A stretch of DNA of 41,063 bases from an uncultured bacterium. GTDB lineage: Bacteria; Myxococcota_A; UBA796; CAJQPC01. Location: contig CAWVYO010000002.1 in NCBI GenBank assembly GCA_963934385.1, positions 1-41,063 on the forward strand. The letters run 5' to 3'. Below, in pieces: positions 931 through 16,540 of the stretch. The translations under genes and the position numbers were made by a program. The stretch's first letter is position 1, and each line of letters begins with the position of its first letter. The notes under the pieces were generated by a model that saw only the letters and a program-made list of their open reading frames with translations, searched no databases and was not told the DNA's origin.

Positions 931-2115
931 TTGCATGTTTTACAGGTAACACCGTATTATCCGCCTACGTGGGCTTATGGTGGGATACCACGTATTGTTT
1001 ACGGGCTCTCAAGGGCGCTTGTCACTGCGGGGACTACTGTCTCTGTTTGGACGACTGACGCACTGGATGAAAGTAGCCGCTCCAAAGTACCAACTCATAG
1101 GGTTGATGAGGGTGTGAATGTTTTTGTCTCTAAGAACCTCTCGAATCGCCTAGCCTATGGTCAACAACTCTTCTTGCCTTTGAATTACAGGGCGGCGCTA
1201 GAATCTGTAGGACCGGTTGATTTGATTCACCTGCACGGGCACAGGCACCTTCTAAACAACGCAGCGATAGGTTTTGCTAAGCGCCATAATATACCGTGGG
1301 TAATGACACCAAACGGGACCCTGCCAAGACATGAAAACAAGGTAGCCCCCAAGGCAATCTGGGATGCGCTTATCGCCAACAGAGTTCCGGCTGGGGCGAG
1401 CAAGATGATAGCGGTGTCTGGAGTAGAAGTAGGTCAAATGCGTCGAGCTGGCATCCCTCAAGATAAGATAGCTCAAATTCCAAATGGGTTGACATTGGAG
1501 GAGTTCTCGAACCTCCCGCAAAAAGGATCTTTTCGAAACAAGTACAAAATTAAGGGTCCTATTGTCGCGTATCTCGGCCAGATATCTCCAAGAAAAGGGG
1601 TCTCACATCTTGTAGAGGCGTTTAGAGATCACAATATGATGGGGGCTACACTGGTTGTAGGTGGAAACGATATGGGTGCCATGGCTCAAGCAAAGAGCAT
1701 AGCCTCAACTGTGTCAGGCGAGCGGGTGATTTTTACTGGCCTGCTCGAAGGTGACGATCGCTTGGCTCTCCTGGTCGATGCCGATGTTCTCGTGTACCCC
1801 TCAACAGATGAGATCTTTGGTCTTGTCCCTTTTGAGGGTTTGTTATGTGGTGCGCCAGTTGTCGTGGGTGGTGACTGTGGTTGTGGGCAGCTAATCCAGC
1901 AGGCTGGCGCGGGGCTACTGGTAAAGCACGCTGACGTTGAGGGGCTTAGAGATAGAATATTGACTCTGCTGGGCGATAGAGTTGCAGCAGAGGCCATGGT
2001 TAATAGAGGGAAGAGCTACATTAACTCAAACCTGGGCTTCTCTAAGATTGCCCAAGACCACATTGCGCTCTACAATGCCGTATTAGATCGTCACAATAAA
2101 GAGAGGAAAATTTGA
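931..2115 (+). CDS. glycosyltransferase family 4 (GT-B fold)
   Basis: N-terminal HVLQVTPYYPP..YGGIP, RKG motif and ExFGLVxxE (EX7E) signature. Probable TTG start at 931 with AGAGGT RBS (ORF track starts at 859). Confidence 0.9.
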   Translation: MHVLQVTPYYPPTWAYGGIPRIVYGLSRALVTAGTTVSVWTTDALDESSRSKVPTHRVDEGVNVFVSKNLSNRLAYGQQLFLPLNYRAALESVGPVDLIHLHGHRHLLNNAAIGFAKRHNIPWVMTPNGTLPRHENKVAPKAIWDALIANRVPAGASKMIAVSGVEVGQMRRAGIPQDKIAQIPNGLTLEEFSNLPQKGSFRNKYKIKGPIVAYLGQISPRKGVSHLVEAFRDHNMMGATLVVGGNDMGAMAQAKSIASTVSGERVIFTGLLEGDDRLALLVDADVLVYPSTDEIFGLVPFEGLLCGAPVVVGGDCGCGQLIQQAGAGLLVKHADVEGLRDRILTLLGDRVAAEAMVNRGKSYINSNLGFSKIAQDHIALYNAVLDRHNKERKI

Positions 2116-3863
2116 AGGACGCGCCAGAGAAACAGGCTGATGATAGCGCTCAAACCGTAAAGGTTTGGTTGCTCTGGGCTGTGTTGATTGCGCTAATAGC
2201 TCTTGTCTGGAGTAACGGTCTCCACGGCGAGTTTACCTACGACGACAAACTGGAGGTCGTTGGGAATCGAACCATTCGCATGTTGAGCGAGTGGGGTGTT
2301 GTGGCCTCCTACAACCCAGCAAGGGTGTTTGTCATTGGCTCTTACGCTATTAATTATCACTACGCTGGGGCGGACCCATTTCTATATCATATGGTAGATG
2401 TCGCTATTCATATGGTGTGTGCTGGTTTGGCTATGCTGTTTGTCTCGACATTGGCGAGAAGCATAGGAGTGGCCAACCACCTTCGTGTCGGGTTTGTATC
2501 GGCTTTACTCTGGTCGCTTCACCCCCTAACAACCGAGGCGGTAACCTACACAACAGGTCGATCAGAGCAGCTGGTGGCGCTGTTTGGGTTGTGGGCTTGC
2601 TGGCTTTGGACGAGGTGGTTGGTTGAGAGAGAGCGTAGCCTCTGGATTACTGCTTGGTTGGGTGTCGCTTTAGCTTGTCTGTGCAAGGAGAATGCGGTGG
2701 TTATTCCCGCTGTGTTTTTGGTGATAGACATAGCCCTTTCTAGTCGCCAGACTACCAAGGGTCGCCCTAGTATTTTACGTAGAACAGCCCCTTACCTTCC
2801 AGGGTTGTTCATGTTGATCTTCGCTTTCGGTCTGAGGTTAAAACTTCATGGTGTTCTGACTACACCAACCCCTATGCGGGATCTTTTAAGCCAGGTGATG
2901 ACTGAGGCAATAGTTACGTGGCGGTACCTGTTTTTGTCTGTATTACCTATCGGTCAGACCGTATTTCATGACCAAGCTGAAGTTGGGGTTACCCCACTGT
3001 CGTTACTGGCTCTGGTTGGGATGTTGTCGGTCGTCGCTTTCGCTGTTGTTAGGAGATCTCGGAACCTGTTTTTATCTGTGGCAGTAGGCTGGTTCTTGCT
3101 GTTTTTGGCGCCTACTTTTATTGTTCCACTCAAAGAGACAATGGCCGAACACAGAGCGTTTATCGGGCTCTTAGGTGTGGCATGGTCTGTAGCTTGGCTA
3201 CTAGAGCTATTGGGTAATCGCCCTCGGCAGGTGGTAACATTTGTTATCGTTGCGGCGCTGGGGTTAGCCACTGTCCAGCGAAACAGTGTTTGGTCTACAG
3301 AGGTAACGCTCTGGGAGGAGGCAACACAGAGATCTCCAGAGTCAGCAGAGGCTTGGTATGGCTTTGGAGAGGCTCAACGATATACTTTAGCGAACCCAGA
3401 GCTCCCCGAGGCCGAAGCAGATAGATTGAACCCCGTTTCTGCATTTAGTAGGGCTGTTGAGTTAGACCCAGAGTACAAAGAGGCCTGGAACAAGCTCGGA
3501 ATATCACAGGCCGAGTTGGGTAATACTGACGTGGCAATCCAAGCTTGGCAGGAGGCGCTTCGAATAGACCCTCAGTACTGTAAACCACATACAAATTGGG
3601 GTAAGGCTCTTGCGCAGATGGGGCGTAACGTAGAGAGTTTAGAGGAGTTTCAGAGTGCACTGACGTGGTGCCCAGACAACGCGACTGCCCACTATTTCGC
3701 GGGATTGCTGTTCGATCAACGCATGAATGATGTAGAGAAGGCTCGCTTTCACTACGAGACCCTTCTAGAAATAGAGCCTACATTTGGCTGCCCGTTTGGG
3801 TTGGCTGGAGGGCAGTGTGTTGCTGAGGAGGTTCGTCAGCGGATCTTAGAGCTGACCTGGTAG
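2112..3863 (+). CDS. TMTC-like multi-TM GT-C protein with C-terminal TPR repeats (putative protein O-mannosyl/glycosyltransferase)
   Basis: FTYDD after TM1 (DD at 2241..2246), Y(N/R)P motif, LHPLTTEAVTYTTGRSEQL, CKENAV and EHRAF. About 10-11 TM segments are followed by WSTEVTLWE and TPRs (AWYGFG, AWNKLG, PHTNWG, AHYFAG). TTGA overlap with the GT4 stop. Confidence 0.85.
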   Translation: MKDAPEKQADDSAQTVKVWLLWAVLIALIALVWSNGLHGEFTYDDKLEVVGNRTIRMLSEWGVVASYNPARVFVIGSYAINYHYAGADPFLYHMVDVAIHMVCAGLAMLFVSTLARSIGVANHLRVGFVSALLWSLHPLTTEAVTYTTGRSEQLVALFGLWACWLWTRWLVERERSLWITAWLGVALACLCKENAVVIPAVFLVIDIALSSRQTTKGRPSILRRTAPYLPGLFMLIFAFGLRLKLHGVLTTPTPMRDLLSQVMTEAIVTWRYLFLSVLPIGQTVFHDQAEVGVTPLSLLALVGMLSVVAFAVVRRSRNLFLSVAVGWFLLFLAPTFIVPLKETMAEHRAFIGLLGVAWSVAWLLELLGNRPRQVVTFVIVAALGLATVQRNSVWSTEVTLWEEATQRSPESAEAWYGFGEAQRYTLANPELPEAEADRLNPVSAFSRAVELDPEYKEAWNKLGISQAELGNTDVAIQAWQEALRIDPQYCKPHTNWGKALAQMGRNVESLEEFQSALTWCPDNATAHYFAGLLFDQRMNDVEKARFHYETLLEIEPTFGCPFGLAGGQCVAEEVRQRILELTW

Positions 3864-15848: not shown

Positions 15849-16540
15849 TTTTGTTTGTAAGCCGAAGCTTCCTTTATGGCCACCACGCTCCTCACAAAGT
15901 TCTTCACACCTGTCACCCCGTCGTGCATTGATTCACCAGTGAGTCGGTCGTTCATTGTAACGGGTATTTCGCAGATTTTTAACCCGAGTCTGATGCCTAG
16001 CACCCTCACGTTTGCGTCCGCAGTCTGCGCTGGAAAGTGCTCGGAAAAAAGTGACAGGGCTTCTGTGTCCAACCCCCAGAAGCCAGAGGTAACATCCCTG
16101 ATAGTCTCTCCAGTTGTGAAGCGAACCAACATGGATAAGAATGCGTTTCCTAATTTTCTACTAAGAGCACCCTCGGAGTCTGTGTTGTCCCTGCTACCTA
16201 TCACCCAGTTGGACTTGCTTAGGGCTGAGAAAAGCTTGGGGATATCTGCTGGTGGGTGCTGACCATCAGCATCTATTTGAACCACCTTGTTAAAACCATT
16301 GCCGGCTAAATAGCGATACCCGACCCTTAAAGCGCCTGCGTATCCCGAACCATTTTGATCGACTACAGTAGCCCCGAGTTTTTTTGCCAAAGATTTGGTT
16401 TCGTCGGTGCTACCGCTATTTACGACTACGATCTCTACATCTGGTGAGGAGTCACGAATTCCCGCAATAACCAGCCCTAAAGACTGCGCTTCGTTTCTAG
16501 CGGGAATTAAAACCGCCCTTTTCTCAGGCGCATTAGACAA
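15839..16540 (-). CDS. glycosyltransferase family 2, Dpm1/polyprenol-phosphate sugar synthase-like
   Basis: LIPARNEA, VVVNSGSTD, QIDADGQH (DxD), VIGSR, RDVTSGFWG and EIPV, with no C-terminal TM pair. Confidence 0.85.
   Translation of the reverse strand: MSNAPEKRAVLIPARNEAQSLGLVIAGIRDSSPDVEIVVVNSGSTDETKSLAKKLGATVVDQNGSGYAGALRVGYRYLAGNGFNKVVQIDADGQHPPADIPKLFSALSKSNWVIGSRDNTDSEGALSRKLGNAFLSMLVRFTTGETIRDVTSGFWGLDTEALSLFSEHFPAQTADANVRVLGIRLGLKICEIPVTMNDRLTGESMHDGVTGVKNFVRSVVAIKEASAYKQNHR

Follow-up and report, generated by a model that had tools for sequence, protein, structure and literature searches.

Gene content and organization of the locus

The window, the whole 41,063-nt stretch of DNA that was analyzed, comes from an uncultured marine myxobacterium and carries the following genes, in which PKD1 and PKD2 denote two candidate acceptor lipoproteins:

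469–885, − strand: Cys-rich small lipoprotein, 138 aa, 10 Cys, no Pfam match; divergent from GT4
931–2115 (alternative start 859), + strand: cytoplasmic GT4 glycosyltransferase (Glycos_transf_1, 4e-22; Glyco_transf_4)
2112–3863, + strand: TPR-GT-C (PMT_2, 30.5 bits; TPR families)
3836–5212, − strand: B12-binding radical SAM enzyme (B12-binding and Radical_SAM)
5236–5961, − strand: cytoplasmic HEAT-repeat protein, 241 aa
6005–6769, − strand: secreted 254-aa protein with signal peptide, no Pfam match; divergent from PKD1
6959–8338, + strand: PKD1, core gene (K319L-like_PKD, 1.7e-25; PKD_4; lipobox LSGC)
8360–9760, + strand: PKD2, core gene (K319L-like_PKD, 5.9e-30; PKD_4; lipobox TMAC)
9769–10710, + strand: periplasmic β-propeller protein, 313 aa, core gene, no Pfam match (AlphaFold pLDDT 88; Foldseek BamB/TolB/WD40)
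10694–12499, + strand: predicted 601-aa GT-C, core gene (AlphaFold pLDDT 92; Foldseek matches at probability 1.0)
12496–14157, + strand: weakly GH2-like lipoprotein (Glyco_hydro_2_N, only 17 bits)
14154–15848, + strand: third GT-C, 564 aa, PMT_2-type (PMT_2, 27.1 bits)
15839–16540, − strand: soluble GT2, Dpm1/ArnC/AglJ-like (Glycos_transf_2)

All genes named in the initial annotation lie where it had placed them, as judged from open reading frames and translations, and its inventory of three GT-Cs, one Dpm1/ArnC-like GT2 and two PKD lipoproteins was confirmed. The spacing it gave, with gaps of 21 and 8 nt followed by overlaps of 17, 4 and 4 nt, is exact; the 17-nt overlap couples the propeller stop translationally to the start of the 601-aa GT-C, and a 4-nt overlap likewise couples GT4 to the TPR-GT-C. 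It had left unmentioned the HEAT-repeat (5236–5961) and secreted 254-aa (6005–6769) proteins, as well as the Cys-rich small lipoprotein (469–885) just outside its interval.

PKD1 is an acidic lipoprotein consisting of four PKD repeats, with a Cys-rich insertion within the last repeat, and PKD2 is its paralogue (32% identity, BLASTP 1e-57) with the same architecture. Both contain approximately 23% Ser+Thr, 16% Asp+Glu and 1.5–3% Lys+Arg. Apart from one D-(S/T) located in the N-terminal tether, the Ser/Thr columns conserved in them are those of the canonical PKD motifs 'DGSxS' and 'TD..S'. The PKD1 region is transcribed: metatranscriptome contigs 100% identical to it cover positions 7226–7643, 7906–8056 and 8124–8397, and one RNA contig crosses the PKD1/PKD2 junction, which, like the tight gene spacing, fits an operon. 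The propeller protein contains four invariant cysteines.

The 601-aa membrane protein has no Pfam match and is assigned as a GT-C glycosyltransferase by fold only, from a confident model whose Foldseek matches at probability 1.0 comprise STT3, ArnT, ALG9/12, DPY19, AftD and PglB. Its conserved first helix is followed by an invariant acidic loop motif, PVDTDEIYQHLA; residues D134, H139, K265 and R411 are invariant, and the chain ends in a small α/β domain. Profile searches retrieved thousands of distant PMT_2-type relatives, and the protein represents a lineage-specific subfamily of a PMT_2/DUF8201-like clade. The GT-C label originally given to this enzyme stands at the level of fold. The GH2 label of the adjacent lipoprotein is weak, with three weak collinear segments aligning to β-galactosidase, including HPSVLMW against HPSIIIW. 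Similarity between the third and the 601-aa GT-C was not detectable.

In the TPR-GT-C, a polytopic GT-C domain at the N-terminus, whose TM1 is followed by FTYDD, precedes C-terminal TPRs, an architecture of the TfpW/TMTC type. Residues D44, D45, R71, H137, P138, K192 and E346 are invariant in an alignment of broad bacterial relatives. Distant relatives of both the TPR and the 601-aa GT-C occur in unrelated contexts. The best solved relatives of the GT2 are the Pyrococcus Dol-P-Man synthase (PDB 5mlz, 8.6e-10) and then ArnC, and its top NCBIfam matches are AglJ, Dol-P-hexose transferase and PpgS, all far under the cut-off (AglJ, 91.6 vs 325 bits). By sequence, it is likely a polyprenyl-phosphate sugar synthase supplying the donor.

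Distribution and co-inheritance of the gene set

Six co-inherited genes form the core, namely GT4, TPR-GT-C, PKD1, PKD2, β-propeller and 601-aa GT-C, and the set is inherited as a unit across almost the entire order. Co-occurrence of PKD and GT-C genes, which the initial annotation had proposed as its own test, was observed: the 601-aa GT-C gene is closely preceded by PKD1 and PKD2 in 49/50 species-level loci, and the PKD1–PKD2–601-aa GT-C locus also includes the propeller in 46/50 species-level Myxococcota loci. Orthologues were found for GT4 (45–67% identity) and the propeller in 35/41 relatives each, and for full-length PKD1 and the 601-aa GT-C in 36/41 each, with PKD2 paired with PKD1 in every case; inherited synteny inflates such counts, because all evidence comes from a single order. 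GT4 adjoins the TPR-GT-C in 30–31/39 loci, and both genes were located within 10 kb in approximately 30/39. In family f1, at least five genomes encode the TPR-GT-C away from the PKD locus, and the 601-aa GT-C and PKD genes lie on different contigs in five genomes; even when split up, the two parts persist within one genome. Gene order is kept while protein identities fall to 25–45%.

The sister family f3 lacks all six core genes jointly, GT4 being absent from all four of its genomes, and the GT2 orthologue is missing as well. It keeps the HEAT and Cys-rich lipoprotein genes, there directly adjoining each other, and the six missing genes flank this retained pair on both sides. The HEAT gene, present in 40/41 relatives, f3 included, and upstream of PKD1 in 39/39 loci, and the Cys-rich lipoprotein gene are therefore conserved neighbors that are not specific to the module. 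The gene for the secreted 254-aa protein, found in 26/39 loci, is a frequent accessory.

The remaining enzymes are distributed more narrowly. The GT2 lies within the locus in only 5/51 species; most module-positive genomes encode an orthologue at E ≤ 1e-28, usually elsewhere, and none was found by this criterion in three of them (G022, G028 and G039). The third GT-C is a family-level addition, present in 16/51 loci and following the 601-aa GT-C only in f1, and the GH2-like gene is a genus-level addition confined to two genomes, with one species besides that of the window (1/51). The radical SAM enzyme, which scores below every NCBIfam cut-off and has over 15 paralogues within its own genome, is absent from f3, yet also from the module-keeping groups f7 and f2-g10, and is a frequent but dispensable accessory. 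A flippase gene was not found in the locus, and the conserved core includes no Wzx/Wzy, ABC-transporter, initiating-transferase, polymerase, exporter or sugar-nucleotide genes. Given the missing flippase, these low counts and the dispensable radical SAM enzyme, the earlier description of a complete pathway was overstated.

Relation to characterized glycosylation systems

TfpW from Pseudomonas aeruginosa group IV is a GT-C pilin O-arabinofuranosyltransferase whose gene lies directly downstream of pilA; its first periplasmic loop contains an essential DDX motif, its C-terminus carries periplasmic TPRs, and its donor is a polyprenyl-P-sugar (10.1101/2020.04.19.049825). It is the closest tested bacterial counterpart of the TPR-GT-C: both join a polytopic GT-C to TPRs, and a distant, 26%-identical homologue of the window's enzyme is encoded directly 3′ of two pilin genes, in the vicinity of GT4 and GT2 genes. 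However, the acceptor of TfpW is pilin rather than the candidate PKD lipoproteins, a distance of 3 kb separates the TPR-GT-C from the PKD genes and its coupling partner is GT4, and the genes that do share an operon with PKD1 and PKD2 encode a propeller and another GT-C, unrelated to the first.

Eukaryotic TMTC1–4 (GT105) and TMEM260 combine a GT-C with lumenal TPRs and O-mannosylate β-strands of folded β-sandwiches, the cadherin EC and IPT domains, using Dol-P-Man from a Dpm1-type GT2 (PMC7801869, PMC10214176). The label "TMTC-type" proposed in the initial annotation holds for the loop motifs, as DD, (Y)RP, KE, D-aromatic and E(H)RxY are conserved in the TPR-GT-C, and KE and E(H)RxY match TMTC ligand-binding motifs (compared with PMC7801869). 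It does not extend to the domain level: profile searches detected neither TMTC_DUF1736 (PF08409), the TMTC-defining Pfam domain, nor TMEM260-like (PF11028), and the candidate acceptors are PKD rather than cadherin or IPT domains. TfpW is the nearer analogue.

In three-component systems (GtrA/B/C, ArnC/ArnE-F/ArnT, and polyprenyl-P-ribose synthase/MATE/GT136), a GT2 synthase works with a GT-C outside the cytoplasm (PMC11127046), and the window's GT2 most resembles Dol-P-Man synthase and ArnC. The targets of those systems are O antigen, lipid A or teichoic acids, and their genes sit in glycan loci, whereas the module is tied to lipoprotein genes, its locus lacks a flippase gene and its GT2 is usually unlinked. 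Actinobacterial Ppm1/Pmt (GT39) pairs a soluble Dpm1-like synthase with a GT-C that O-mannosylates lipoproteins (PMC5673659, PMC3460810). That system is broad-spectrum, with genes not beside those of its substrates, and its PMT (PF02366) and MIR domains are absent here, where only borderline PMT_2 matches were obtained. Archaeal S-layer glycosylation employs the Dol-P-hexose synthases AglJ/AglD and AglB/STT3. AglJ is the best NCBIfam match of the GT2 and STT3 the best fold match of the 601-aa GT-C, and the S-layer protein 1l0q (YVTN propeller and PKD domains) is among the propeller's fold matches; however, the 601-aa GT-C lacks a WWDYG-type C-terminal domain and its TM-score to STT3 is only approximately 0.4.

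A candidate envelope glycosylation module and its alternatives

In our assessment, the chances are about even that this locus encodes an envelope glycosylation module specific to one lineage, an uncultured and largely aquatic order of Myxococcota, with the PKD lipoproteins as acceptors. That acceptor role, drawn from gene linkage only, may be right or wrong with about equal probability. We infer the donor, acceptor, step order and topology as follows. The Dpm1/ArnC-like GT2 would charge polyprenyl phosphate with a sugar on the cytoplasmic side of the membrane, and a putative flippase would flip the lipid-linked sugar. In the periplasm, the GT-Cs would transfer it to the PKD lipoproteins and possibly to the propeller, with the TPR domain and/or the propeller docking the folded acceptor, a parallel to TfpW and its pilin and to TMTC/TMEM260 and their cadherin and IPT domains. 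GT4 probably extends a lipid-linked or protein-linked glycan, and the third GT-C, the GH2-like lipoprotein and the B12 radical SAM enzyme would be lineage-specific tailoring additions. The module is a well-defined candidate for a bacterial apparatus attaching sugars to particular surface proteins, and its defined enzyme/substrate pairs are suited to heterologous testing.

A serious though doubtful alternative is that the GT-Cs work in the periplasm, like classical three-component systems, to assemble or modify a glycoconjugate that is not a protein, whether lipid A/LPS, glycolipid or exopolysaccharide, with the PKD and propeller proteins as glycan-binding, scaffold or chain-handling partners. 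GT4 enzymes usually assemble glycans or glycolipids, and PKD and propeller domains can act as accessory binding modules. The NCBIfam matches of this GT4 are EPS, PIM and glycolipid families, ArnT is among the top fold matches of the 601-aa GT-C, and glycans are the target of most characterized bacterial systems that combine a GT2 with a GT-C (PMC11127046). Glycan tailoring is also suggested by the GH2-like hydrolase and the radical SAM enzyme, but neither is conserved alongside the module. The conserved core, moreover, lacks the polymerase, flippase, exporter, initiating-transferase and sugar-nucleotide genes, and the strict two-lipoprotein pairing and propeller/GT-C coupling resemble the enzyme-beside-substrate layouts of TfpW and PilO.

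It is unlikely that the TPR-GT-C, with GT4 and GT2, is a broad-spectrum O-glycosyltransferase of many lipoproteins or secreted proteins, leaving only the 601-aa GT-C dedicated to the PKD and propeller proteins. PKD1 and PKD2 would then be two among many targets, and actinobacterial Pmt would be comparable; the mycobacterial enzyme glycosylates lipoproteins (PMC5673659). Consistent with this, D-[ST]-[GAS] occurs at most 14 residues after the lipobox Cys in 69/311 predicted lipoproteins of the window's genome, against 25 ± 4.6 in shuffled sequences, and many motif-bearing lipoproteins show (D-T-x)n tethers. PKD1 orthologues retain the tether D-(S/T), and several genomes carry the TPR-GT-C outside the PKD locus. 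However, in the sampled genomes the tether motif does not follow module presence, occurring in 0/22 and 2/30 lipoproteins of the module-positive genomes G036 and G025 (the f3 samples are too small and noisy for a comparison), and f3 has lost the TPR-GT-C along with the PKD genes.

Finally, although every positive genome belongs to one order and the HEAT and Cys-rich lipoprotein genes are equally conserved neighbors demonstrably not tied to the module, it is very improbable that the PKD, propeller and glycosyltransferase genes are functionally unrelated neighbors by descent, given the joint absence in f3 of the six genes flanking the retained pair, the order kept despite the low protein identities, the translational coupling, and the retention of separated genes within the same genome.

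Gene content and conservation of the locus

ORF calling and translation recovered all the genes that the initial annotation had listed for 931–16540, at the same positions, and reproduced its intergenic distances exactly (gaps of 21 and 8 nt; overlaps of 17, 4 and 4 nt). The genes and the basis of each assignment are as follows.

Genes of the locus
931–2115: GT4 (Pfam), with a 4-nt overlap into the following gene
2112–3863: polytopic TPR-GT-C (PMT_2, 30.5 bits, plus C-terminal TPRs)
3836–5212, minus strand: B12-binding radical SAM enzyme (domain match)
6959–8338: PKD1 lipoprotein, lipobox LSGC (four PKD repeats; K319L-like_PKD, PKD_4)
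8360–9760: PKD2 lipoprotein, lipobox TMAC (four PKD repeats; K319L-like_PKD, PKD_4)
9769–10710: 313-aa β-propeller (predicted fold)
10694–12499: 601-aa GT-C (predicted fold)
12496–14157: "GH2-like" lipoprotein (faint collinear β-galactosidase matches)
14154–15848: third GT-C, a PMT_2-type membrane protein (PMT_2, 27.1 bits)
15839–16540, minus strand, convergent: GT2 (Glycos_transf_2)

Scanning the window for Rfam families and tRNAs gave no matches, and a promoter/terminator scan was uninformative (24 promoter-like sites found, 17 ± 4 expected).

We fetched one locus per species around a homolog of the 601-aa GT-C and mapped the window's proteins onto these loci, taking as denominators the loci with enough DNA. 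The initial annotation had made its reading depend on PKD and GT-C genes staying together in related genomes, and their co-occurrence proved strong, with PKD1 and PKD2 just upstream of this GT-C in 49 of 50 loci.

Genes of the window found around homologs of the 601-aa GT-C
PKD1, PKD2 and propeller together: 46/50 loci
HEAT-repeat gene, divergent, upstream: 39/39 loci
GT4 within 10 kb: 31/39 loci
TPR-GT-C within 10 kb: 30/39 loci
Secreted 254-aa gene: 26/39 loci
Radical SAM gene: 23/39 loci
Third GT-C, downstream: 16/51 loci
GT2, downstream: 5/51 loci
GH2-like gene, downstream: 1/51 loci

Whole-genome searches of 40 relatives detected orthologs of the core module (601-aa GT-C, propeller, full-length PKD1/2, TPR-GT-C and GT4) across six families of the order, and found none of them in the four genomes of family f3. 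The GT2 ortholog follows the same pattern of presence and absence, with three exceptions. A few genomes carry the gene for the 601-aa GT-C or the TPR enzyme on another contig than the PKD genes, yet retain both parts. The order of the genes, their translational coupling and their shared loss point to the two PKD lipoproteins and the propeller as specific candidate acceptors, and synteny together with joint loss gives strong support to the link between the enzymes and these candidates. The genes around distant relatives of the two GT-Cs showed no association with PKD outside the window's order.

Two further candidates for membership of the module, the HEAT-repeat protein (5236–5961) and a Cys-rich small lipoprotein (469–885), were rejected because their genes are kept as direct neighbors in the module-negative f3; this gene pair is conserved across the whole order, f3 included (L115–L117). 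The B12 radical SAM gene was likewise rejected as a core member, since its ortholog is missing from the module-positive family f7 and the window's genome encodes more than 15 paralogs; it can be no more than accessory. These paralogs are 25–32% identical to the window's copy and are scattered over contigs C1, C20, C31, C71, C106, C125 and others. Other families of the order show a different arrangement, in which two tandem genes for secreted or lipoproteins of ~525 aa (propeller-like by eye) come after the 601-aa GT-C gene and are followed by one for a small OMP-like protein of ~230 aa (L052:12036–15174, L053:11841–15614, L054:13908–17814 and 13 other loci). The third GT-C is absent there, and Lgt and RecJ genes are often nearby.

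The 601-aa and TPR-fused GT-C enzymes

The 601-aa protein had no Pfam or NCBIfam match even at E < 10 and no sequence match in the PDB, whether queried singly or as a profile; it was identified by fold search only. The top 20 PDB neighbors of its AlphaFold model (pLDDT 92.4, pTM 0.92) according to Foldseek are all GT-C enzymes, including STT3, ArnT, ALG9/12, DPY19, AftD, AftA, PglB, Pmt4 and PimE (prob 0.99–1.0, TM 0.35–0.48). These matches place the model in the GT-C fold, which is defined by a polytopic N-terminal module whose first external loop carries juxtamembrane helices. Across 32 homologs, D134 is invariant within the motif PPxDTDExYQHLALP, which follows the conserved first helix and gives the first loop its acidic residue; judging from the fold, this loop is probably periplasmic. 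The protein does not fall into the curated GT-C sequence families (PMT_2, GT87, DUF8201, STT3 and others), and borderline PMT_2, GT87 or DUF8201 matches are carried by a few orthologs and many distant relatives. The enzyme is therefore a GT-C by predicted fold, not by sequence family. Its homologs derive almost exclusively from uncultured Myxococcota genomes, many of them wrongly labeled in their records.

A profile search covering 1.8 billion representatives retrieved about 45–60 close full-length relatives of the 601-aa enzyme. Since thousands of distant proteins of 600–680 aa form a continuum beyond these, sequence comparison places the enzyme in a lineage-specific subfamily of a very large uncharacterized GT-C clade and not in an isolated new family.

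The initial annotation had described the locus as a candidate TMTC-type system. In an alignment of the TPR enzyme with broad bacterial relatives, the invariant or nearly invariant positions are D44–D45 (FxxDD after TM1; here FTYDD), R71 in (Y)RP, H137–P138 in HPxxTEAV, K192–E193, and E346-H-R-x-Y350, which reads E(H)RxY. These correspond to the ligand-binding motifs of TMTC1–4, namely DD, SHKSYRP, KE(T/Q)xxT and ERxxY (PMC7801869), and the DD, KE and ERxxY elements are all present. The comparison with TMTC holds for these loop motifs, but not for family membership: the protein has no match to PF08409 (TMTC_DUF1736, the TM7–TM8 loop) at E < 10, a six-frame genome search with PF08409 left its gene untouched, and TMTC_DUF1736 is not among the 25 Pfam families most frequently matched in 24 aligned relatives. 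We therefore rejected the TPR enzyme as a DUF1736/TMTC member.

The nearest experimentally studied bacterial enzyme with the architecture of the TPR-GT-C is TfpW of Pseudomonas aeruginosa, a 646-aa protein predicted to have 11 TM helices, whose TPR domain is periplasmic and whose DDx motif is essential; its gene directly follows pilA, and the enzyme is required for pilin glycosylation with D-arabinofuranose (10.1101/2020.04.19.049825). The C-terminal TPRs of the window's enzyme (TPR_11, 3e-20, and others) are likely to be periplasmic as well, given this architecture and the TfpW topology data. The gene layout differs from that of tfpW, which lies just downstream of its substrate pilin, as the window's gene follows the GT4 gene and neither a pilin nor a PKD gene. 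The only homolog with the pilin layout is a distant one in Coralloluteibacterium (P0188; 26% identity, E = 2e-11), which directly follows two pilin genes and has a GT4-type and a GT2 gene nearby. Hence a TPR-GT-C, a GT4 and a GT2 are found together again next to pilins, a proven class of protein acceptor. In detail, this locus of Coralloluteibacterium stylophorae (L110:7080–13938) runs from two type IV pilin genes through the TPR-GT-C, a GT4 fused to an LPG_synthase_TM-like domain and a methyltransferase to the GT2, alongside pilus assembly genes; it is probably an uncharacterized TfpW-like pilin glycosylation locus.

Putative donor synthesis, accessory genes and candidate acceptors

The GT2 (Glycos_transf_2, 2.6e-20) has the character of a polyprenyl-phosphate glycosyltransferase of the Dpm1/GtrB/ArnC type. 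Its best solved relatives are the Pyrococcus dolichol-phosphate mannose synthase (5mlz, 8.6e-10) and then ArnC, and NCBIfam equivalogs all scored below cut-off. Three-component periplasmic systems combine such a GT2 with a dedicated flippase, but a domain scan of 18 ORFs of at least 100 aa, spanning 469 to 20673, revealed no flippase domain of the GtrA, SMR/ArnEF or MATE type. The GH2-like lipoprotein scores 17.4 bits against Glyco_hydro_2_N, for which the cut-off is 28, and aligns with β-galactosidase 3ob8 in three weak collinear segments (E 0.024).

Both PKD lipoproteins have a signal peptide ending in the lipobox, followed by PKD repeats that score above cut-off. They are paralogs, 32% identical, and contain about 23% Ser + Thr, 16% Asp + Glu and only 1.5–3% Lys + Arg. 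An acceptor-site signal was considered and rejected, as the conserved Ser/Thr columns are ordinary PKD positions. The 313-aa protein, without a family match, is modeled by AlphaFold as a β-propeller (pLDDT 87.8) with BamB, TolB and WD40 proteins as Foldseek neighbors.

Proteins of ~650–690 aa in a paralog family end in the two terminal PKD repeats known from PKD1/2, complete with the Cys-rich insertion (C..SYG..CEDC) and with "CTG(S/T)" at the C terminus; members of the family include G000:C32:5572–6225 in the window's genome as well as G012:C12:29683–30327 (L118) and G003:C11 (L119) in relatives. Flags of one TGA codon in matches to these paralogs, which might have indicated selenocysteine, are an artefact of the alignment running over the terminal stop codon.

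The window's own sequence was found in marine and seawater metagenomes. One marine metatranscriptome contains contigs identical to the window over PKD1 and across the PKD1/PKD2 junction (8124–8397), which points to transcription of PKD1. Contigs of the same identity include one small piece on the HEAT gene and none on the enzymes, a pattern consistent with a structural protein produced in abundance and enzymes present at low levels, although contig data are weak evidence and DNA carry-over may contribute.

Proposed mechanism and alternative readings

The locus is a candidate for periplasmic glycosylation from a lipid-linked donor, with its enzyme genes linked to potential protein substrates. 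What the analysis shows are the folds, motifs, gene order, shared presence and absence and, within the limits of the contig data, PKD1 transcription; donor, acceptor, topology and sequence of steps we infer, most likely as follows. The Dpm1/ArnC-like GT2 would make a polyprenyl-phosphate sugar, which a flippase would carry to the periplasmic face, where the GT-C enzymes would transfer the sugar to the PKD lipoproteins encoded with them, and perhaps also to the propeller. Docking of the folded acceptor might fall to the TPR domain, the propeller or both, the GT4 would extend a lipid- or protein-linked glycan, and lineage-specific tailoring may come from the third GT-C, hydrolase and radical SAM enzyme. 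For this chain as a whole, from GT2 through flippase and GT-C to the PKD lipoproteins, we regard the chances as evenly balanced. The initial annotation had read the locus as a complete pathway; its observation is confirmed, and its interpretation gains partial support.

A more specific proposal, which we offer tentatively and consider rather doubtful, is that the locus represents a bacterial counterpart of the domain-specific O-glycosylation of animals (TMTC/cadherin, TMEM260/IPT). The GT-Cs would recognize the folded Ig-like PKD domains of the two surface lipoproteins, with the TPR solenoid and the propeller as adaptors and the previously unclassified GT-C subfamily as a second transferase, and an abundant surface layer would depend on the single sugars to fold, remain stable or adhere. 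If true, GT-C glycosylation of folded β-sandwich domains, known from animal cadherins and plexins, exists in bacteria too, and new periplasmic glycoengineering tools would follow. Bacteria contain very many TPR-fused and PMT_2-type GT-C enzymes, and a profile search for one GT-C clade alone gave more than 5,700 representatives at an E no worse than 1e-30; to our knowledge, almost none has a known acceptor. Although the hosts are uncultured, the locus offers clonable enzyme/substrate pairs for heterologous reconstitution, making the role of bacterial TPR-GT-C enzymes testable.

The target could instead be a non-protein glycoconjugate, with the PKD and propeller proteins acting as partners; the core contains no genes for glycan assembly or export, which speaks against this reading, and we think it possible but unlikely. 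Still less probable is a broad-spectrum system for lipoprotein O-glycosylation. In its favor, D[ST][GAS] within +14 of the lipidated Cys is strikingly enriched in the window's genome (69 of 311 predicted lipoproteins, against 25 ± 4.6 in shuffles), and this tether motif could be a glycosylation or sorting signal. The enrichment did not clearly track the module in other genomes, however: samples of three module-negative and three module-positive genomes showed no consistent difference, with a regex predictor that is noisy in high-GC DNA. Mere inherited synteny is very improbable, since the module genes flank the retained HEAT/Cys-rich pair and vanish jointly in f3.

Two minor observations concern neighboring features of the window and its genome. 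Very frequently, the tether of a predicted lipoprotein in this genome shows D-T-G, D-T-S or (D-T-x)n directly after the lipidated Cys, for example at window 7025–7051, in the gene at 20786 and on contigs C1, C4, C9 and C23. Downstream of the locus, 16552–18708 encodes an HMA-domain protein, a cytochrome c, a 261-aa protein and a thioredoxin-like protein, a block that is kept downstream in the closest relatives (L033, L036, L047) and probably forms a redox or metal module of its own in the periplasm.
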